DNA from: Candidatus Bipolaricaulia bacterium
Lineage (GTDB): Bacteria > Bipolaricaulota > Bipolaricaulia > JBHIAT01
Length of the DNA stretch: 22,526 nt
Assembly: GCA_046758705.1 (NCBI GenBank)
Contig: JBHIAT010000043.1
Coordinates: 1 to 22,526, forward strand
Direction of reading: 5' to 3'
Program-made: the position numbers and the translations under genes
Notes under the pieces: generated by a model
Told to the model about the DNA's origin: nothing
The model's database searches: none
What the model saw: the letters and a program-made list of their open reading frames with translations, nothing else
Shown: one piece after another, positions 13,885 to 22,526 of the stretch
Layout: the number at the start of each line of letters is the position of its first letter
Numbering within the stretch: position 1 is the stretch's first letter

Positions 13885-15513
13885 ATGGAAACCAGATGGA
13901 AGCTAGAGAAGCCTGCAAACGAGGCGGATCGAATTCCGACTTACGCCCCCGGGACGCCCGAACGGGAGCGTCTCCTGGGGCAGATTGAAGCCCTCAAGTC
14001 CCAGACCGAGGAGATCCCCGTCATCGTCGGCGGCCGGGCGGTCCAGACTGGCGAACTCTTCGAAGTCCGCTGTCCCCACGATCACCAACGGGTCCTGGCA
14101 CACGCTCATCTGGCCACGGAAACGGAGCTTAACCAGGCCATCGACGTGGCGCTGGAGGCTCAACAGGCGTGGACAGCCCTCGATGGCTACCAGCGCGCTG
14201 CCGTCTTCCACCGGGCGGCAGATCTCCTGGCCGGATCCCGTCGCATCGAGAACATCGCCGCCATCATGGTAAACCAGTCCAAGACGCCCTTCGAGGCTGA
14301 GATCGACCTGGCTGAGCTGGTCGATTTTTGGCGTTTTAATGCCTATTACATGCAGTTCTTGTACGAACAGCAGCCCGACCAGGGGCCTAACGAACTCAAC
14401 CGCTTCGACTGGCGCCCCCTCGAGGGGTTCGTGCTTGCCGTTCCACCTTTCAACTTCTACTCCATCGGGGGCAACCTGCCCACCGCCCCTGCCCTGGTGG
14501 GCAACGTGGTCCTCTGGAAGCCGTCACGCTTGGTGCTCTTGGCCAATTACCGCATCATGCAAGTGCTCCAGGAAGCGGGTCTCCCCGACGGCGTGATCCA
14601 GTTCGTACCGTTTTCCAGCCGGTACAGCGATGTGATGCTCGGACATCCTGCCTTCGCCGGCCTGCACTTCACGGGGAGCTACGAGACGCTGGTGCACCTG
14701 TGGCAGCGTATCGGCGAGCATCTCAGCGATTACAGAAATTTCCCCCGCATCGTGGGTGAGACCGGCGGCAAAGATTTTATCTTTGTGCATCGGTCGGCGG
14801 ACGTCGAGACGGTTGCTGCCAACGTCATCCGGGGGGCGTTTGAGTATCAGGGCCAGAAGTGCTCCGCCGCCTCACGGATGTACGTGCCCGACAACCTGTG
14901 GGAGCCCCTCAAGGTGCGGCTAAACGAGGAGTTGCCCAAGCTCAACGTTGGCCCCGTCGACGACCTGAGCGTCGCCATCGGAGCCATCATCAGCGATGAG
15001 GCTTTCCAGAAGATCATCTCATATATCGAGCACGCCAAACAGCACCCTAAAGAGTACGAGATCGTCTACGGAGGCGACTACGACGATGCCCAAGGCTGGT
15101 TCGTCACACCCACGGTCGTGGTCACAAAGGACCCGCGCAGCAAGCTCATGGTTGAGGAGATCTTCGGACCGGTGCTGACCGTCTACGTCTATCTCGACGA
15201 AGCGTATGAGGAGACGCTGAGGTTGTGCGACGCATCGACGGTTTACGGGCTCACCGGTGCGATCTTCGCCCAGGATCGAGAGGCGATTGAGCAGGCCAAG
15301 CGCGTTCTGCGTTATGCAGCCGGCAACTTCTACATCAATGACAAGCCGACGGGGGCGATCGTAGGGAGACAGCCGTTCGGAGGCGCACGTCACTCGGGGA
15401 CGAACGACAAGGCAGGATCCTGGCTCAACGTGGCCCGCTGGCTCAGCCCGCGGGCGATCAAGGAGACGCCGATCCCGCCGCGCGACTGGCACCGTCCCTA
15501 CATGAAGGAGTGA
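13885..15513 (+). CDS. pruA: 1-pyrroline-5-carboxylate (L-glutamate gamma-semialdehyde) dehydrogenase
   Basis: YAPGTPER, QSKTPFEAEID, DFWRFN, RPLEGFV, PFNF, FPRIVGETGGKDF, AFEYQGQKCSA, FYINDKPTGAIVGRQPFGG.R.SGTNDKAG. Confidence 0.95.
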   Translation: METRWKLEKPANEADRIPTYAPGTPERERLLGQIEALKSQTEEIPVIVGGRAVQTGELFEVRCPHDHQRVLAHAHLATETELNQAIDVALEAQQAWTALDGYQRAAVFHRAADLLAGSRRIENIAAIMVNQSKTPFEAEIDLAELVDFWRFNAYYMQFLYEQQPDQGPNELNRFDWRPLEGFVLAVPPFNFYSIGGNLPTAPALVGNVVLWKPSRLVLLANYRIMQVLQEAGLPDGVIQFVPFSSRYSDVMLGHPAFAGLHFTGSYETLVHLWQRIGEHLSDYRNFPRIVGETGGKDFIFVHRSADVETVAANVIRGAFEYQGQKCSAASRMYVPDNLWEPLKVRLNEELPKLNVGPVDDLSVAIGAIISDEAFQKIISYIEHAKQHPKEYEIVYGGDYDDAQGWFVTPTVVVTKDPRSKLMVEEIFGPVLTVYVYLDEAYEETLRLCDASTVYGLTGAIFAQDREAIEQAKRVLRYAAGNFYINDKPTGAIVGRQPFGGARHSGTNDKAGSWLNVARWLSPRAIKETPIPPRDWHRPYMKE

Positions 15514-15519
15514 AGTACT

Positions 15520-17448
15520 ATAAGAAAGAAATTATCAGCGAACAATGAGTGGGTCGCTGGAGTTCTGGTTCTGGTCGTCGTTATTATCGTTGTGGTATCG
15601 CTTATCATTCCAAAGGGATCATCTGAAGGGCAGGCCATCGCTCAGGCGCCGGAAGCACTTGTCGCACCGCCTGATGTGGTGGCCACGTTTAACAAGGGCG
15701 GCTGCGCCGGTTGCCACACCATTCCCGGCATCCCCGGCGCCAACGGCCGAGTGGGACCAAATCTGTCGAACCTGGGTGTCGAAGCGGCCGGTCGTCGCCC
15801 CGGCTTCACCGCCGAGGAGTACATCCGCGAATCCATTCTGGATCCCAACGCGTTCATCGCCTCCAACTGTCCCACCGGCGACTGTCCCGCCGGCGTTATG
15901 CTGCAGAACTTTGCTCAGACGTTGAGTCCAGACGAATTGGAGAAGATCGTGAGCTATCTGTCCGTGTTGGGCACCGACCAAGCTGTAGCGTTGTCTGCCG
16001 AAGCCCCTGTCCCTGTGGTGCTGGACGCCAGTTTGCCGACGGAATCGGTGTTGGAGCCTTTCATGCCGCTGCCCAAGAGTCCGGCCAGCGATGCCCAGAT
16101 CGCACTCGGCAGGTTCCTGTTCTTCGACAGTCGCCTATCGGGCAATAACTCACTGAGCTGTGCCAGTTGCCATCAGCCGGACAACGCCTTCACCGACGGC
16201 GCCGTCATGAGCCAAGGCTATCCTTCCACTCAGTACTTCCGAAACATCCCCACGTTGCTCAACACCGTCTATGCCGAACGACTGTACTGGGATGGTCGCA
16301 TGGATGGGGCCGATATGCCGACACTGGTGCGAGATCACATCACCGAGGCGCACTTCATGAGCATGGATGGTCGGCTGATGGTAGAACGTCTGAACCAGGT
16401 GCCAGCCTATGTGGAGCTGTTTGGAGAGGCGTTCGGCAGCGAGCCCAGCTTCGGCAACGTGTTGAAGGCGATTACCGCCTATGTACAGTCACTCAACTCG
16501 CCGTCCACGGCCTATGATCGCTACCTGACCGGCGACACGACCGCCCTTTCCGCCGACGCCCGGGCCGGGCTGGCGCTCTTCAACGGAAGGGCCAATTGCA
16601 GCAGTTGCCACAGCGGACCTCTGCTCAGCGATTACAACTACTATAACATCGGTGTAACCACAGACCCGGCGATGTTTAACGATCCAGAACGGCATCTCAC
16701 CTTCCGCCGCTTCTTCCGCACACTGGGCGTATCTGACTATCGCCGTTTGCAGGAGGACGTGGGCCAGTTTGCCCTTACGATGGACCCGGCCGACCGGGGC
16801 AAGTTCCGCACACCCAGCCTGCGAGAGGTGGGCCGCACGGTACCCTATATGCACAACGGCAGGCTGACCACGTTGGAAGACGTGATACGCTTCTACAATC
16901 AGGGTGGCGGCCCCGGTCAGAACGCCGGGCTGAAGCCCTTGGGCCTGACCGATAACGAAATTGCTCAATTGGTGGCTTTCCTGGAGAGCCTGAGCAGTGA
17001 GCCAGTGCCGGTGGAAGCCCCGGTGCTACCCGATTATCAACTCCTGGCCCTGGGTGCCGCTCCACCGGAGCCGTCTGAGGAGCCGGTCGCCGCCCAGCCG
17101 ACCGTACAGGCCCCAGAGGCGCTGGTCGCACCGCCCGATGTGGCAGTGGCCTTCACCCAGGCCGGCTGTATCGCTTGCCACGTCATTCCCAGCGTCCCCG
17201 GCGCCACCGGCCAAGTGGGACCGGATCTGTCCAATCTGGGTGCTGAAGCGGCCGATCGTCGACCCGACCACACCGCCGAGGAGTACATCCGCGAGTCGAT
17301 TCTGGATCCCAATGCATTCATCACTCCTAATTGTCCCTTCGGCGACTGCCCCGCTGGCGTCATGCCAGCGATCTACGCCCAGACGTTGAGTCCAGATGAT
17401 CTGGAGAAGATGGTGAACTATCTGTCTGCTTTGGGCACCGGGAGGTGA
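15520..17448 (+). CDS. Membrane-anchored tetraheme protein: cytochrome c + MauG/CCP-family diheme domain + cytochrome c (IdrP-like fusion)
   Basis: Four CxxCH (CAGCH, CASCH, CSSCH, CIACH); LGRFLFFDSRLS, RNIPTLLN, YWDGR, FRTPSLR..PYMHNG..FYN. The frame is open upstream of GTG 15592 to ATA 15520, giving RKKLS..WVAGVLVLVVVIIVVVSLII (TM anchor) 9 nt after AAGGAG; start position uncertain. Confidence 0.88.
   Translation: MRKKLSANNEWVAGVLVLVVVIIVVVSLIIPKGSSEGQAIAQAPEALVAPPDVVATFNKGGCAGCHTIPGIPGANGRVGPNLSNLGVEAAGRRPGFTAEEYIRESILDPNAFIASNCPTGDCPAGVMLQNFAQTLSPDELEKIVSYLSVLGTDQAVALSAEAPVPVVLDASLPTESVLEPFMPLPKSPASDAQIALGRFLFFDSRLSGNNSLSCASCHQPDNAFTDGAVMSQGYPSTQYFRNIPTLLNTVYAERLYWDGRMDGADMPTLVRDHITEAHFMSMDGRLMVERLNQVPAYVELFGEAFGSEPSFGNVLKAITAYVQSLNSPSTAYDRYLTGDTTALSADARAGLALFNGRANCSSCHSGPLLSDYNYYNIGVTTDPAMFNDPERHLTFRRFFRTLGVSDYRRLQEDVGQFALTMDPADRGKFRTPSLREVGRTVPYMHNGRLTTLEDVIRFYNQGGGPGQNAGLKPLGLTDNEIAQLVAFLESLSSEPVPVEAPVLPDYQLLALGAAPPEPSEEPVAAQPTVQAPEALVAPPDVAVAFTQAGCIACHVIPSVPGATGQVGPDLSNLGAEAADRRPDHTAEEYIRESILDPNAFITPNCPFGDCPAGVMPAIYAQTLSPDDLEKMVNYLSALGTGR
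15643..15976 (+). repeat. Intragenic duplication copy 1 (cytochrome c domain)
   Basis: 334 bp, colinear with 17107-17440; about 82/111 aa identical by hand count. Confidence 0.92.
17107..17440 (+). repeat. Intragenic duplication copy 2 (cytochrome c domain)
   Basis: QAPEALVAPPDV...CIACH...TAEEYIRESILDPNAFI..NCP.GDCPAGVM...LSALGT, mirroring 15643-15976. Confidence 0.92.
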
Positions 17449-17453
17449 CGAAC

Positions 17454-18608
17454 ATGCTGAACCGCTTTGTATTCTTTGCGACCATGGGTCTGATCCTGGC
17501 CGCAGCTTTGACCCTGGTGTTGACGAGCCAACCGTCCGCCTCTATCCAGAGCGAGCGTGATTTTCCACCTCTGGCGCCCTTGCCGCCGGTGCCTGTCCCG
17601 CCTGACAATCCCATCACACCGGAAAAGGTGGAGCTGGGCCGGTTGCTCTACTTTGACCCGCGTATGTCAGCCGATGGCTCCCTCAGTTGCAACAGCTGCC
17701 ACTCCGTCAGCACAGGCTGGGCTGCTCCCACGGCCATCTCGTTCGCCGGTCCGGGGACCAGCCACTGGCGCAACGCCATGACGATCCTCAATGTAGGGTA
17801 TTACACCAAGCTGAACTGGGACGGCGCTAGGAAAAGCATCGAACAGCAAAACGCCGGCGCCTGGGGCGGCGCTGTGGCCGGCAATCTAGACTCGGCTCTG
17901 GCCGAAGAGCGCCTCGCCCAGATCCCCGAGTACGTGGAGCGGTTTCGCCAGGTCTTCGGCACCGAATATCCGCTGTGGGATGATGCCCTGAAGGCTGTGG
18001 CCACCTATCAGCGTACCATCGTTAGCCGAAACGTGCCCTTCGATGCCTACCTAAACGGCGATGAAACCGCCATCTCCGATGTGGCCAAGCGCGGTTTTGA
18101 GCTGTTTCAGGGTAAGGCTAACTGCATCGCATGTCACAACGGCGCTTTGACCAGCGACGACAGCTATCACGCACTGGGCGTCCCGATGAACCCGGACTTC
18201 CTCAACAGTCCGCTCAAGCAGATCACTTTCCGTTATGAGCAATGGGCCAAGGGTGCTCCGGAACAGATTTACCGGACCGCCACCGAGGATTTAGGCTTGT
18301 ACTATGTAACCAAGCAGGATTCCGATATAGGAAAATTCCGAACGCCCAGCCTGCGGGATCTGTGCTATACGGCACCCTATATGCACAACGGTGTCTTCAG
18401 CACGCTGGAGGAGGTGGTGGCGTTCTACAACGCCGGTGACGGTGACCACCCCAACAAGAGTCCGTTGATTCAGCCGCTGGGCTTGACCGCTGACGAGCAG
18501 GGGGACCTGGTGGAGTTTCTTAACAGCCTGTGTGGTGATCCTGTGACCGATGAAGCGCCGAAACTGCCGCCTTATGGCGTCTTCCCGGTACCCGAAGGAG
18601 GCGAGTAA
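17454..18608 (+). CDS. Diheme cytochrome c peroxidase/MauG-family protein (IdrP-like)
   Basis: Signal/TM segment, PPDNPITPEKVELGRLLYFDPRMS, CNSCH, WDGAR, CIACH, FRTPSLRDL..TAPYMHNG..FYN; ATG 17454 after GGAGGT. Confidence 0.92.
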   Translation: MLNRFVFFATMGLILAAALTLVLTSQPSASIQSERDFPPLAPLPPVPVPPDNPITPEKVELGRLLYFDPRMSADGSLSCNSCHSVSTGWAAPTAISFAGPGTSHWRNAMTILNVGYYTKLNWDGARKSIEQQNAGAWGGAVAGNLDSALAEERLAQIPEYVERFRQVFGTEYPLWDDALKAVATYQRTIVSRNVPFDAYLNGDETAISDVAKRGFELFQGKANCIACHNGALTSDDSYHALGVPMNPDFLNSPLKQITFRYEQWAKGAPEQIYRTATEDLGLYYVTKQDSDIGKFRTPSLRDLCYTAPYMHNGVFSTLEEVVAFYNAGDGDHPNKSPLIQPLGLTADEQGDLVEFLNSLCGDPVTDEAPKLPPYGVFPVPEGGE

Positions 18609-18609
18609 C

Positions 18610-19209
18610 ATGACCGAACAGAACCCGATCCACCAACCTGAGGACGAAACCTGCGGTGCCACCCGTCCGAGCTTCCAGGTCAACCGGCGCCGGTTCCTGT
18701 TCGGTGCCGGTGCCACCGTGACTTTGCTGACCATGCCTGGCTGGATGCGCCGTTTGGGAATGCCTGCCCAGGTAAACGCCCAGATCGCCGAGTACTCTCG
18801 TAAGTGGATCGGCAAGCTCAGCGAACTGAAGCTGGGCGAAGCGGTCGCCTTCAATTATCCCTGGGATCACCCCAACGCCACCAACTTTCTGATTAAGCTG
18901 AGCCAGCCGGCCGGCGGCGGTGTGGGACCAGAGGACGATGTGGTCGCTTTTAACAGCTTCTGCACTCACCAGGGCGGCCCGCTGGCCGGCAAATTCAACG
19001 GCGAAGTGGGCATGGTCGGCCCCTGTCCCCTGCACTGGACGACCTTTGACCTGACGCGCCACGGGATGGTGGTCAGCGGCCACGCCACCCTGGGCTTGCC
19101 GCAGATCATCTTGGAGACGGATGGCGACGATATTTACGCCACCGGTGTGCTGGGACTGATCTTTGGCTACCACAACAACCGAGTCGACCCGACGAGCTTA
19201 GGAGGCTGA
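18610..19209 (+). CDS. Rieske [2Fe-2S] small subunit, AioB/IdrB-like, Tat-exported
   Basis: NRRRFLFG Tat motif; FNYP, GGGVGPEDDVVAF, CTHQG...CPLH, HATLGLPQI.LE, IYATGVLGLIFG; ATG 18610 after AAGGAG. Confidence 0.93.
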   Translation: MTEQNPIHQPEDETCGATRPSFQVNRRRFLFGAGATVTLLTMPGWMRRLGMPAQVNAQIAEYSRKWIGKLSELKLGEAVAFNYPWDHPNATNFLIKLSQPAGGGVGPEDDVVAFNSFCTHQGGPLAGKFNGEVGMVGPCPLHWTTFDLTRHGMVVSGHATLGLPQIILETDGDDIYATGVLGLIFGYHNNRVDPTSLGG

Positions 19210-19212
19210 ACC

Positions 19213-21864
19213 ATGCCATTGGATTACACACCCCAAGATAGCGTGCCACTGCCACCCCAAGACGCGAACGTCCATACCACCGCTTGCGATTACTGCATTG
19301 TGGGCTGCGGCTACAAGGTCTACACCTGGCCGATCGGTCGTGAGGGCGGCCCCAGAGCAGAGGAGAACGCCCTGGGCGCTGACTTCCCCGGCGGGACGTT
19401 GAGACCCTGGATCAGCCCTAACCAGCACAACATTGTAAACATCGACGGCAAGGATCACCACGTGGTGGTCGTGCCCGACTTTGAAACGCGAGTGGTCAAC
19501 CGCTTTGGCGACCACTCGATTCGCGGTGGCACATTGGCACTGAAATGCTATAACCCCAACACGCCAACGCGCGATCGTCTGCTCTATCCGCAGATTCGCG
19601 TCAATGGCAAGCTCACCCGCGTAGACTGGGACACGGCACTCGAGATCATGGCTGCAGTGAGCCAGCACGTGCTCAGCAACCACGGCGAATCGGCCTGGGC
19701 CATGAAGACCTATTCGTACGAGTTCTTCGAAAACACCTATGCTATTACTAAGCTGGCGTTCGGGTCGATCAAAACACCCGCGTTCGCGCCCCACGACAAA
19801 CCGGGTGCGGGCAATGACACCGCTGGCGTAGACGACTCAGGCATCATCACCTTCAGCGCCAGCTACGAGGATTGGGGCTCAGCCGATGTCATCTTCATCT
19901 CCGGTACCGATCCGTTTGAGACCAAAACGATTGTCTTTACCGAGTGGATGATGAAGAGCGGCGCCAAACTGATCATGGTGCTGCCCCGTCGCACTGCGGG
20001 CGTCGCCTTCGCCGAAGCCACCGGTGGCCTGTTCCTGCAGATCGTCCCCGGCACTGACGCTCTACTGCACATGGCCATCAGCCGCATCATTCTGGAAAAC
20101 GGCTGGGAGGATCGGGAGTTCATCGAAACGTGGGTCGCCAACAACTGGGAGATTGGTGCCGGTATGGGCCGGGGCACCCGCAACACGCCCTGGCAATGGC
20201 GGACCACCTGGGGCAAGATCGGCGCCCTCGGCTTCGAGGACTACAAGGCGTGGCTGCTGAACTACGAACCGGCGTCTTTGGAGTTTGCCTCCCGGGAAAC
20301 GGGTATCCCGGCCGAAAAGATCCGTCAGGCAGCTGAGATGCTGACCGGCGGTGGCCGAGGCGAGCACCCCAAGGCCAGCTTCGGCTTCGAGAAGGGCAAC
20401 TACTGGAGCAACAACTACCTGAACACCGCCAGCTTCGCCGCCATGGGCCTGCTCTGCGGTGCCGGCAACCGCCCCGGTCAAGTGATCTCCCGCCTAGGCG
20501 GCCATCAGCGGGGTTGGATCGGCGCTGCCAGCTATCCTCGGGACAAATCGCCGGAGAAGCTGCCGGGACGGCGCAAGATCGAGATGGATCTGGATCGCTG
20601 GGTGGAGGCCGGCAACGTGCGCTTCGCCTGGGTGATCGGTACTACGTGGACCGGGGCCATGGCCGCCAGCCAGGAGCTGGCCCGTCGCATGCGGGAGATG
20701 ACAGCTGAGAACCCCCACCAGATTACCCGCCTGGACAAGCAGCACATCATTGACACGCTGATCAAACGGGTCGACAGCAGCGGCATGGTGATGGTGGACT
20801 CGGACATCTACCCGGTGGAACCGGTGGGCACCGAGCTTTCCGACATCGTGCTCCCTGCCGCTGCCTGGGGCGAGCACGATGCGGCACGTTGCAACGGCGA
20901 ACGCCGTCTGCGCCTGTACTCTAAGTTCTACGACCCACCCGGTGAGGTTAAACCCGACTGGTGGGCCATCAGTCGCTTTGCCCAGAAGATGGGCTTTGAA
21001 GACTACGACTGGGAAACCGATAACGACGTCTTCGAGGAAGCAGCGCGCTTCAGCCGCGGCGGCGTGCTGGATTACTTCGCGCTGGTGTGGAAGGCCAGGA
21101 AGGACGGCATCCCAGGCCACGAAGCCTTGCGTGCCCTGGGTACCACCGGTATCCAGACCCCCATCCGTTACGAAAACGGTCAGCTGATCAGCACCAAACG
21201 CCTGCACGATTCTACGCTCACGCTTGATTCGCCGCAGGGCCCCACCATCCACAGTAAATGGCTGACCCAGTTCAAAACCCACAGCGGCAAGGCATTGCTG
21301 ATCAAGAGCCCCTGGGAGCTGTTCAGCGACTTCTACGAGCGCATCCAGCCGGATCGCAGCAAAGGCGAGTTTTGGGTGACCAACGGCCGCATCAACGAAA
21401 TCTGGCAGTCGGGGTTCGACGACGTACGCAAGCCCTACGTTGAAAACCGCTGGCCTGCCACCTTCGTCGAAATCAACCCGGATAACGCCGCCGAATACGA
21501 CATCGAAAGCGGCGACTGGGTGCGCGTCTGGAACGATGACGTGTTGATCCAGACCGGCGGGTTCAACCGCGTTGAGAGCGACGCGATCAGCTTCACCTGG
21601 CTGGTGGAAAATAGTCACATCCGCATCGGCAGGGGCGAAGTCGAAGCGGTCGCCATCGTCACCGACGCCGTACCCCCCAGGTTGCTTTTCAGTTACTTCT
21701 TGCACCCCGGCAGTCCGGCCAACAGCCTGGTGCATCGGGTGCCCGATCCCATCACCAATCGCTACCGCTTCAAGCTGGGCAAGGGCAAGATCGAGCGCCT
21801 GGGTGAATCTCCCTTCAAGCACGACTTTACCCTGATGAGCTTCAAGCCGAGGGATGTGACGTAG
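19213..21864 (+). CDS. Molybdopterin (DMSO reductase family) large subunit, AioA/IdrA-like; candidate iodate reductase
   Basis: CDYCIVGCGYK with downstream HSIRGG ([3Fe-4S] C-x2-C-x3-C...S pattern), DRLLYP, FENT, EKGNYWSNNY, RLGGHQRG, NGERRLRLY, NGRINEIWQS; no own signal peptide; GGAGG RBS. Confidence 0.93.
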   Translation: MPLDYTPQDSVPLPPQDANVHTTACDYCIVGCGYKVYTWPIGREGGPRAEENALGADFPGGTLRPWISPNQHNIVNIDGKDHHVVVVPDFETRVVNRFGDHSIRGGTLALKCYNPNTPTRDRLLYPQIRVNGKLTRVDWDTALEIMAAVSQHVLSNHGESAWAMKTYSYEFFENTYAITKLAFGSIKTPAFAPHDKPGAGNDTAGVDDSGIITFSASYEDWGSADVIFISGTDPFETKTIVFTEWMMKSGAKLIMVLPRRTAGVAFAEATGGLFLQIVPGTDALLHMAISRIILENGWEDREFIETWVANNWEIGAGMGRGTRNTPWQWRTTWGKIGALGFEDYKAWLLNYEPASLEFASRETGIPAEKIRQAAEMLTGGGRGEHPKASFGFEKGNYWSNNYLNTASFAAMGLLCGAGNRPGQVISRLGGHQRGWIGAASYPRDKSPEKLPGRRKIEMDLDRWVEAGNVRFAWVIGTTWTGAMAASQELARRMREMTAENPHQITRLDKQHIIDTLIKRVDSSGMVMVDSDIYPVEPVGTELSDIVLPAAAWGEHDAARCNGERRLRLYSKFYDPPGEVKPDWWAISRFAQKMGFEDYDWETDNDVFEEAARFSRGGVLDYFALVWKARKDGIPGHEALRALGTTGIQTPIRYENGQLISTKRLHDSTLTLDSPQGPTIHSKWLTQFKTHSGKALLIKSPWELFSDFYERIQPDRSKGEFWVTNGRINEIWQSGFDDVRKPYVENRWPATFVEINPDNAAEYDIESGDWVRVWNDDVLIQTGGFNRVESDAISFTWLVENSHIRIGRGEVEAVAIVTDAVPPRLLFSYFLHPGSPANSLVHRVPDPITNRYRFKLGKGKIERLGESPFKHDFTLMSFKPRDVT

Positions 21865-21870
21865 CCAGGG

Positions 21871-22526
21871 ATGGAACTGGAGAAATTAGAGGGGTACCAG
21901 CGGTTCGTGACCAACGATCTCGTCGCAGAACTCGAAAAATATTTCCCAGAGGGGAGCTCAACCTTGTGTGGGATCGTCGGCGGCCGGCGGCCGTCGAGTT
22001 ACTCTCTGAGCCCATCGCTGTGGAACACCGCCTATCGAATCCTGAAGATCGATGCCGTCTACATCGCCTTCGATGTTTCGGTCGAACCGGATCACAACAA
22101 TCTGATCGCGTTCATCGACCGGCTCGTCGGCGACGATCGGTTCCGGGTGCTGTCGATCACCGATCCCTACAAACAGACGGTCCTCCAGCACCTAAACACA
22201 CGGGGGGAGGTCGACGGAGTTGCCCGACAGATCGGGGCGGTCAACACCATCATCAGGACCGAGGCCGGATTGTGTGGCTACAACACCGACGGGGTCGGGA
22301 TGGCCCGTAATCTCTCCTCAGTCATCGATCTGAAGGAGGGACGCGTGTTACAGCTCGGTGCCGGCGGGGCGGGACGGGCGATCGCCCACGGTCTGACAGA
22401 GCGGATGGGAAATGGGGTTTACTACCTACTTAACCGCACCGTCAGCCGGGCCAAGGAGCTGGCTGCCTCCTTGGAACGGGCCGACCATCGACTCGAAATC
22501 CGTCCGCTGGGTGGGGCGGCCGATCG
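21871..22526 (+). CDS. aroE: Shikimate dehydrogenase family protein, partial (runs off window end; not in ORF track)
   Basis: Manual translation: MELEKLEG...SYSLSPSLWN...YIAFDV...SITDPYKQ...IGAVNTI...GYNTDGVG...LGAGGAGRAI...NRTVSRAKEL. Confidence 0.88.
   Translation, partial: MELEKLEGYQRFVTNDLVAELEKYFPEGSSTLCGIVGGRRPSSYSLSPSLWNTAYRILKIDAVYIAFDVSVEPDHNNLIAFIDRLVGDDRFRVLSITDPYKQTVLQHLNTRGEVDGVARQIGAVNTIIRTEAGLCGYNTDGVGMARNLSSVIDLKEGRVLQLGAGGAGRAIAHGLTERMGNGVYYLLNRTVSRAKELAASLERADHRLEIRPLGGAAD

Follow-up and report, generated by a model that had tools for sequence, protein, structure and literature searches.

What kind of enzyme is encoded by a cluster of two peroxidase-family genes, a Rieske gene and a molybdenum (Mo) subunit gene that at once resembles an arsenite oxidase and an iodate reductase? 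This question is raised by the window analyzed here, the whole 22,526-base contig C43 of a genome bin (3.70 Mb in 319 contigs, 93.9% complete and 4.7% contaminated). A first-pass annotation of this DNA had described the four genes as an iodate-reductase-like module with its genes rearranged. Our analysis indicates that they are most probably an idrP2-idrP1-idrB-idrA iodate reductase cluster that was acquired laterally by a Bipolaricaulota-class bacterium of a hydrothermal-vent community. This reading is built on four things observed directly: which domains the four genes encode, the order in which they lie, the clade to which the Mo subunit belongs, and the physical link between the cluster and a host-type gene.

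To place the Mo subunit, the 883-aa product of the last gene (idrA) was compared with the IdrA and AioA families. The protein contains Rieske_3 (PF18465, the 3Fe-4S domain, 116 bits), Molybdopterin (PF00384) and Molydop_binding (PF01568) domains, and the three cysteines of its 3Fe-4S motif C25-x2-C28-x3-C32 (CX2CX3C) are invariant in alignment A1. It matches TIGR02693 at 438.7 bits (cut-off 359.05) and is the only AioA-family protein encoded in the whole genome. Its identity is 58% to IdrA of Denitromonas IR-12 (locus L132) and 57% to the plasmid-borne copy of Azonexus NCP973 (L147), as compared with 29–31% to annotated AioA proteins on plasmids and a score of 288.8 bits against the solved NT-26 AioA. 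A plasmid search with idrA returned no record between 31% and 50% identity. Deletion of idrA in Denitromonas is reported to abolish growth on iodate (PMC8692401), and Denitromonas and Azonexus are both shown iodate respirers for which growth and transcript data are given (PMC13455634). IdrA homologues are stated to span 50–80% identity (PMC8692401), so the window protein, at 58%, lies inside the range of the family and is less divergent than had been implied earlier.

A phylogeny with AioA and IdrA references, which the first-pass annotation had proposed, was computed twice (tree 1: LG+G4, quick search, 71 rows; tree 2: LG+C20 with posterior mean site frequencies (PMSF), quick search, 47 rows), and both times the large subunit fell inside the IdrA clade and outside AioA. 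The clade that unites the window with L132 and L147 comprises 51 rows in tree 1, with a support of 89 in the Shimodaira–Hasegawa-like approximate likelihood ratio test (SH-aLRT), and 31 rows in tree 2 (SH-aLRT 95), while AioA of Thermus HB8, Ralstonia pickettii and Cytobacillus firmus lie outside a branch of support 99 in both trees. The window's own subclade has 14 rows, from metagenome-assembled genomes (MAGs) of Actinomycetota, Chloroflexota and Planctomycetota (L066–L079), and a support of 100* in both trees. An alphaproteobacterial branch around Parasulfitobacter (L012), which holds Roseovarius and Aliiroseovarius species, branches off in tree 2 outside a grouping of the Denitromonas and window groups. 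Other Roseovarius and Aliiroseovarius species have been reported to reduce iodate with induction of idr (PMC11445184), and we infer that these tested species fall in the L012 branch. Between the IdrA and AioA families, the unnamed representatives P0122, P0123, P0125, P0127, P0132 and P0133 form a ladder.

The same assignment emerged from individual alignment positions. Columns that are conserved but different between the two families were derived from the data themselves (30 IdrA-clade rows against 9 AioA rows), and the window protein was found to have the IdrA state at 17 of these 17 columns and the AioA state at none (0/17). For example, it carries S168/Y169 where AioA has D/H, D195 where AioA has N, and R433 where AioA has E. 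At the 115 columns conserved across IdrA and AioA together, it agrees at 112. The earlier view of the enzyme as iodate-reductase-like and not a true arsenite oxidase is thus borne out by identity, by two trees and by the discriminating columns. Two further observations were made on the homologues of this subunit. A set of large proteins of 1,100–2,100 aa (P0137, P0159, P0160, P0165, P0167–P0169, P0189, P0193 and others) matches only the first ~440 residues of IdrA of the window at 34–39% identity, and these appear to be multi-domain proteins with an AioA/IdrA-like N-terminal half. In addition, peroxidase, Rieske and Mo genes are present in L084, whose record bears the label of a Methanobacteriota archaeon MAG, and the encoded Mo subunit is 68% identical to that of the window; either archaea have an idr cluster here or the contig was binned wrongly.

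Gene order was surveyed as had also been proposed, by locating counterparts of the four window proteins in IdrA-like loci of named genomes and plasmids. Among the 88 IdrA-clade loci of the survey, which include the window and in which L009 and L111 are the same contig, the order peroxidase-peroxidase-Rieske-Mo (P-P-B-A) was found in 70, the upstream DNA of 13 was too short to tell, and 5 had a genuinely different layout: a single peroxidase gene immediately preceding the Mo gene, without a Rieske gene, in L096, L097 and L114, a Mo gene alone in L110, and the order P-B-A-P in L127. Both Denitromonas iodatirespirans IR-12 (L132) and the Azonexus hydrophilus NCP973 plasmid (L147) have the P-P-B-A arrangement physically, and the deposited annotation of the latter reads two cytochrome c peroxidases, small subunit, large subunit, c-type cytochrome and moaA. 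Moreover, PMC10989891 describes an idrP2,P1,B,A organisation as common to Pseudomonas sp. SCT and Denitromonas IR-12 and states that it 'seems characteristic among iodate reductases'. Because the order occurs in the reference organisms, is found in 70 of the 88 loci and is stated in that paper, the window cluster is not rearranged. The designation idrABP1P2 is a nomenclature rather than a physical map, and the window holds a standard-order idrP2-idrP1-idrB-idrA cluster. Two linked claims of the first-pass annotation consequently had to be abandoned, namely that known idr genes lie in the order A-B-P1-P2 and that the peroxidase genes of the window had been moved upstream. With respect to unusual layouts, the Dehalococcoidia MAGs L095, L096, L097 and L114 each have a single peroxidase gene ~36–40 nt before an IdrA-clade Mo gene with no Rieske gene between them, an arrangement that would leave the Mo subunit without its usual partner bearing the twin-arginine translocation (Tat) signal. 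In L092, a Rieske-Mo pair is followed by two peroxidase genes ~4 kb downstream.

The families of all four genes were confirmed by Pfam and NCBIfam profile matches, and their tight packing was reproduced as first described, with intergenic gaps of 5, 1 and 3 nt given ATG starts at 17454 and 18610 (alternative starts are a GTG at 17445, with a 4-nt overlap, and an ATG at 18550, with a 59-nt overlap). The small subunit IdrB has a Rieske domain and scores 103.7 bits against TIGR02694 (cut-off 95.65), contains a twin-arginine motif (RRRFLF) and the Rieske motifs CTH...CPLH, and is 54% identical to IdrB of Denitromonas L132. A Tat-signal Rieske gene thus lies directly upstream of idrA, as in the iodate reductase IdrABP1P2. 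The two peroxidase-family genes are the only CCP_MauG genes in the whole genome. The idrP1-type protein (140 bits) is 53% identical to the product of the second peroxidase gene of L132, has a visible hydrophobic N-terminus, and finds its best solved match in the Shewanella-type cytochrome c551 peroxidase 3o5c (163.8 bits, with MauG at most 59.5 bits). MauG/MbnH-type enzymes were considered and rejected for both proteins, which score 208 and 227 bits against TIGR03791 (cut-off 443.85) and 208 and 218 bits against TIGR04039 (cut-off 362.85); solved peroxidases give 157–164 bits and MauG 57–75 bits. By sequence, both window peroxidases are nearer to genuine bacterial cytochrome c peroxidases than to MauG.

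The first gene turned out to be the unusual one of the four. The first-pass annotation had counted two peroxidases of the MauG/cytochrome c peroxidase family, and both indeed match CCP_MauG, but the first is not a plain di-haem protein. Its product (144 bits against CCP_MauG) has Cytochrom_C and Cytochrome_CBB3 stretches at both ends and four CXXCH motifs (starting at 15703, 16159, 16597 and 17167), which gives the layout cytochrome c, di-haem core, cytochrome c. The core is 50% identical to the product of the first peroxidase gene of Denitromonas L132 and scores 157 bits against solved di-haem peroxidases versus 75 bits against MauG; the C-terminal cytochrome c domain has a SoxX-like match of 79.4 bits, above the cut-off of 61. 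The solved chain 9qdt_A (417 aa) aligns from its own residue 116–122 onwards and so itself has an N-terminal extension. The two added domains share 73% protein identity and 79% DNA identity over 300 nt. Because the C-terminal domain is closer to its own N-terminal copy (73%) than to any other domain compared (42–53%), the comparison points to an internal duplication in the window lineage.

Fusions of this kind were then followed across the 88 surveyed loci. The N-terminal cytochrome c fusion occurs in 12, only within the window's subclade, and a C-terminal cytochrome c domain is present only in the window and L070 (Caldilineaceae), while seven planctomycete loci have cytochrome c and both peroxidases joined in one five-haem reading frame. 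When the 120 best homologue clusters were sorted by CXXCH count, 53 had four motifs (not all with the domain order of the window), 50 had five, 15 had three and 2 had two, so fused haem-partner layouts are common in metagenomes. No description of a cytochrome c fusion of the first peroxidase was found in the available portions of the idr literature searched. Membrane-anchored tri-haem cytochrome c peroxidases are known, such as E. coli YhjA and the Aggregatibacter quinol peroxidase. They likewise have an N-terminal anchor and an extra c-haem domain ahead of the di-haem core, a likeness of architecture only, whereas the window protein adds a C-terminal haem domain and is encoded in an idr cluster. 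The planctomycete five-haem proteins (L071–L074, L076, L077 and L079; e.g. L072:2718–5366) are 875–942 aa long with five CXXCH motifs, and two CCP_MauG stretches were detected by Pfam in that of L072. In the closest named relative, the Acidimicrobiia MAG L066 (1946–2830), the reading frame of the first peroxidase extends ~295 hydrophobic residues further upstream than the cytochrome c domain; this stretch may form a membrane domain of several helices or be no more than an open frame.

The assignment to iodate reductase was weighed against other readings. Several points count against it. Tree supports are SH-aLRT values from quick searches only, and the discriminating columns were picked on groups from the same tree and are therefore not fully independent of it. 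For the IdrA hidden Markov model of Reyes-Umana et al., a cut-off of 640 bits has been published (PMC8692401), and the family assignment made here draws on identity, trees and alignment columns instead. The subclade comprises MAGs only, its nearest validated enzymes are only 57–58% identical to the window protein, iodate is thus a putative substrate, and the runs listed as containing window DNA all belong to one study, with no RNA run among them. To these are added the start of the first gene, as described below, and the electron-entry role proposed for its cytochrome c domains, which draws on architecture and on one weak count (0/9 versus 16/69 loci). With this in mind, it is conceivable, though we regard it as unlikely, that the enzyme is IdrA-clade by descent but that its subclade uses another oxidant (chlorate, bromate, selenate or nitrate-like oxyanions) or has a broad specificity. 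The separate, fully supported branch with its own haem-partner architecture would fit such a shift, as would the distance from the tested enzymes and the several intermediate lineages between IdrA and AioA (P0122–P0133). Set against this are the retention of all 17 IdrA-specific columns and of the peroxidase pair, which is tied in the literature to iodate chemistry, and the position of the window branch in tree 2, where it is bracketed by the validated Denitromonas/Azonexus group and the Roseovarius/Aliiroseovarius branch (tested congeners reported in PMC11445184). An arsenite oxidase AioBA that uses the c-haem proteins as electron acceptors is very improbable. It would explain why TIGR02693 and TIGR02694 score above their cut-offs and why JGI and NCBI label homologues as arsenite oxidase or arsenate reductase (azurin), but 'arsenate reductase (azurin) large subunit' is also the product name given to the validated IdrA of Azonexus, so neither these profiles nor the label separate the two families. 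The low identity to AioA, the position outside AioA in both trees and the absence of AioA-type residues all speak against this possibility. Finally, profile annotation of the window genes detected no aioXSR, ars or pst genes within the window (no ars search was made in the rest of the genome), in agreement with the first-pass annotation for aioXSR and ars and unlike the AioA loci L146, L148 and L149.

A different concern is that the cluster may be decaying, with a first gene that has lost its start codon, a haem partner that is no longer exported and a system that is impaired as a result. The start at 15520 given by the first-pass annotation lies in an open frame, but its codon is ATA, and the first in-frame ATG, GTG or TTG is the GTG at 15592, which falls inside the predicted membrane helix; none precedes the helix. 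The encoded N-terminus reads RKKLSANNE followed by a 20-residue hydrophobic helix, and the homologues P0272 and P0273 begin MK(S/F)SAND followed by a similar helix, with their Met aligned to a Lys codon (AAG 15526) in the window. The gene-caller version of the protein (P0271, 590 aa) starts further downstream. Both peroxidases of IdrABP1P2 systems are expected to carry Sec signals; by inspection, a hydrophobic N-terminus of the first one is visible only if ATA 15520 is the start, so either ATA is used or the protein has lost its export signal, in which case it could not receive haem. On the other side, an unbroken frame of 644 codons runs from 15514 and includes all four haem motifs, a strong AAGGAG lies 9 nt before the ATA, the letters are identical in contigs from three samples, and the other three genes are full length compared with their homologues. 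We therefore judge decay to have only a slim chance of being correct, and the likely start of the first gene is ATA 15520 behind AAGGAG.

If the cluster is an iodate reductase as we propose, its mechanism up to the peroxidases would follow that inferred from Denitromonas, Pseudomonas SCT and Azonexus (PMC8692401, PMC13455634). By analogy, the Tat signal of IdrB would export the folded IdrAB pair across the membrane, and a quinol:cytochrome c oxidoreductase would deliver electrons, via c-type haem, to the Rieske centre and from there to the 3Fe-4S cluster and then the Mo centre, where iodate would be reduced to hypoiodous acid and on to iodide. The two di-haem peroxidases would then clear H2O2 or another oxidant by-product. 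Beyond these systems, our own suggestion is that the predicted N-terminal helix of the first peroxidase anchors it in the membrane and that the two added cytochrome c domains may provide a built-in point of electron entry that replaces a separate small cytochrome c gene. Such a gene lies directly after idrA in both L132 (Denitromonas) and L147 (Azonexus). Among loci with enough downstream DNA, a haem gene was found within 150 nt after idrA in 0 of 9 fused and 16 of 69 unfused loci, rows that are not phylogenetically independent. The complementary distribution of fused and separate cytochromes was for this reason rejected as evidence, being too weak. The downstream cytochrome c of Azonexus has marginal similarity to the window domain (E 2e-4 over 34 residues). 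As a tentative and rather doubtful extension, the soluble carrier may have been built into the haem partner, such that a tethered cytochrome c-peroxidase-cytochrome c protein would wire the oxidoreductase both to IdrAB and to its own peroxidase site, with the planctomycete cytochrome c-peroxidase-peroxidase fusion as the equivalent. A self-contained module of this sort could have let iodate respiration enter very different cell envelopes, including those of vent Bipolaricaulota. If true, this would mean iodate respiration in a phylum otherwise read as fermentative or acetogenic.

The host of the cluster looks like a Bipolaricaulota-class lineage, judging from RpoB (contig C8), whose best named matches are Candidatus Bipolaricaulota MAGs at 69–71% identity; the earlier expectation of a probably non-proteobacterial host fits this result. 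Of the genomes sampled, the nearest 40 are all related only at the level of the same class and are 1.1–2.3 Mb in size, and no match to the Mo subunit was found in these 40 at E 1e-50. The pruA gene that ends 6 nt upstream of the cluster is of host type (71–77% identical to orthologues in 7 same-class genomes), and in one metagenome study of hydrothermal vents, contigs from three samples span the pruA-idr junction with zero differences; two of these samples may be the source of the bin. Because of this neighbor and the bridged junction, the idr cluster is linked to host-type DNA. The composition of C43 is typical of the bin (rank 91 of 160), whereas the idr stretch has a GC content of 0.606 versus 0.571 for the genome and a tetranucleotide distance in the top 3.4% of 6.3-kb pieces, which hints at transfer as a mild outlier and is not decisive. 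The nearest IdrA relatives are in Acidimicrobiia and Actinomycetota MAGs (79% and 77%), and gain of the cluster by lateral transfer is most likely. An insertion site could not be defined, as a comparison of the pruA surroundings in five same-class genomes found no shared neighbor besides pruA. The genome encodes TatC, two MoeA, a MobA-like protein, cytochrome c assembly factors, five cytochrome b proteins and one haem-copper oxidase, and thus has, on annotation, what the enzyme needs. A 240-aa Chlor_dismutase-family gene on C134 was not read as a chlorite/hypoiodite dismutase since the family also matches control genomes, such as Bacillus. As a separate observation on the vent samples, many short contigs, 90–95% alike, pile on the conserved parts of idrA when runs X1–X4 are compared with window positions 19200–22200 (depth 47 at 20122–20422 in X4, which holds a close relative of the whole stretch), and several idrA-bearing populations seem to share these samples.

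Compared with known systems, the window cluster is like idrABP1P2 of Denitromonas IR-12, Pseudomonas sp. SCT and Azonexus NCP973 in its four families, physical order and orientation, in the IdrA 3Fe-4S motif and IdrB Tat signal, and in the clade of its Mo subunit. It differs from these proteobacterial references in its Bipolaricaulota-like host and in the membrane helix and two cytochrome c domains added to the first peroxidase, and it has no separate small cytochrome c gene after idrA as L132 and L147 do. Unlike on the Azonexus plasmid, no moaA, regulator or mobile-element genes lie beside the cluster, with the contig ending 660 nt after idrA. The closest likeness is to the MAG clusters L066–L079, which have IdrA proteins 69–79% identical to that of the window and the N-terminal fusion on the first peroxidase; all but L070 differ from the window in the C-terminal cytochrome c domain. 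With AioBA (Alcaligenes faecalis, Rhizobium NT-26, Thermus thermophilus HB8) the cluster shares a Rieske small subunit followed by a 3Fe-4S Mo large subunit in B-A order, but the three AioA loci examined (L146, L148 and L149) lack peroxidase genes and carry ars or pst genes. Clusters outside Proteobacteria have been reported for Planctomycetaceae, Rokubacteria and NC10 (PMC8692401) and for SAR324 (PMC13455634), and PMC10989891 gives Chloroflexi and Planctomycetaceae proteins as best matches; our literature search turned up no paper in which Bipolaricaulota and iodate are both mentioned. The cluster type itself is therefore already known, and what is new is the Bipolaricaulota-like host, the hydrothermal-vent setting and the duplicated cytochrome c fusion. 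The range of iodate reductase genes is thereby extended to a Bipolaricaulota-like genome and a vent community. The locus is also another case in which annotation pipelines name an iodate reductase as an arsenite oxidase, and such naming skews the picture of arsenic and iodine cycling drawn from metagenomes. The fused haem partners offer a testable handle on the electron route to IdrAB and on whether the 'peroxidases' only detoxify.

Table 1. Features of the idr cluster and its immediate neighbors in the 22,526-base window.
Feature	Position	Strand	Basis or remark
Shine-Dalgarno-like AAGGAG	15505..15510	+	9 nt before ATA 15520, read from sequence
idrP2-type gene, predicted membrane-anchored four-haem protein	15520..17448	+	642 aa from ATA 15520; 618 aa from GTG 15592
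Predicted N-terminal membrane helix WVAGVLVLVVVIIVVVSLII of idrP2-type gene	15550..15609	+	translation of frame open from 15514; assigned by inspection
N-terminal mono-haem cytochrome c domain, repeat copy 1	15631..15930	+	direct repeat family D1
Di-haem cytochrome c peroxidase core of first gene	16042..17061	+	CCP_MauG, alignment to L132
C-terminal mono-haem cytochrome c domain, repeat copy 2	17095..17394	+	79% DNA identity to copy 1
idrP1-type di-haem cytochrome c peroxidase, 384 aa	17454..18608	+	CCP_MauG 140 bits; hydrophobic N-terminal signal
idrB, Tat-signal Rieske [2Fe-2S] small subunit, 199 aa	18610..19209	+	Rieske, TIGR02694
idrA, molybdopterin catalytic subunit, 883 aa	19213..21864	+	Rieske_3, Molybdopterin, Molydop_binding, TIGR02693
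pruA, context only	13885..15513	+	TIGR01236 790 bits; ends 6 nt upstream of first idr gene
Partial shikimate-dehydrogenase-like gene, context only	21871..22524	+	6 nt downstream of idrA, at contig end

Apart from the idr cluster, the window encodes an ABC transporter, aldehyde dehydrogenases, an aminotransferase, pruA and the partial aroE-like gene. Scanning for promoters and terminators yielded nothing usable, with 0 promoter-like sites and with 2 terminator-like ones against a shuffle mean of 8.5. Further upstream, positions 1041–2192 encode a 383-aa protein with a weak match to MtaA/CmuA-type methyltransferases (73–74 bits, cut-offs 235–244).

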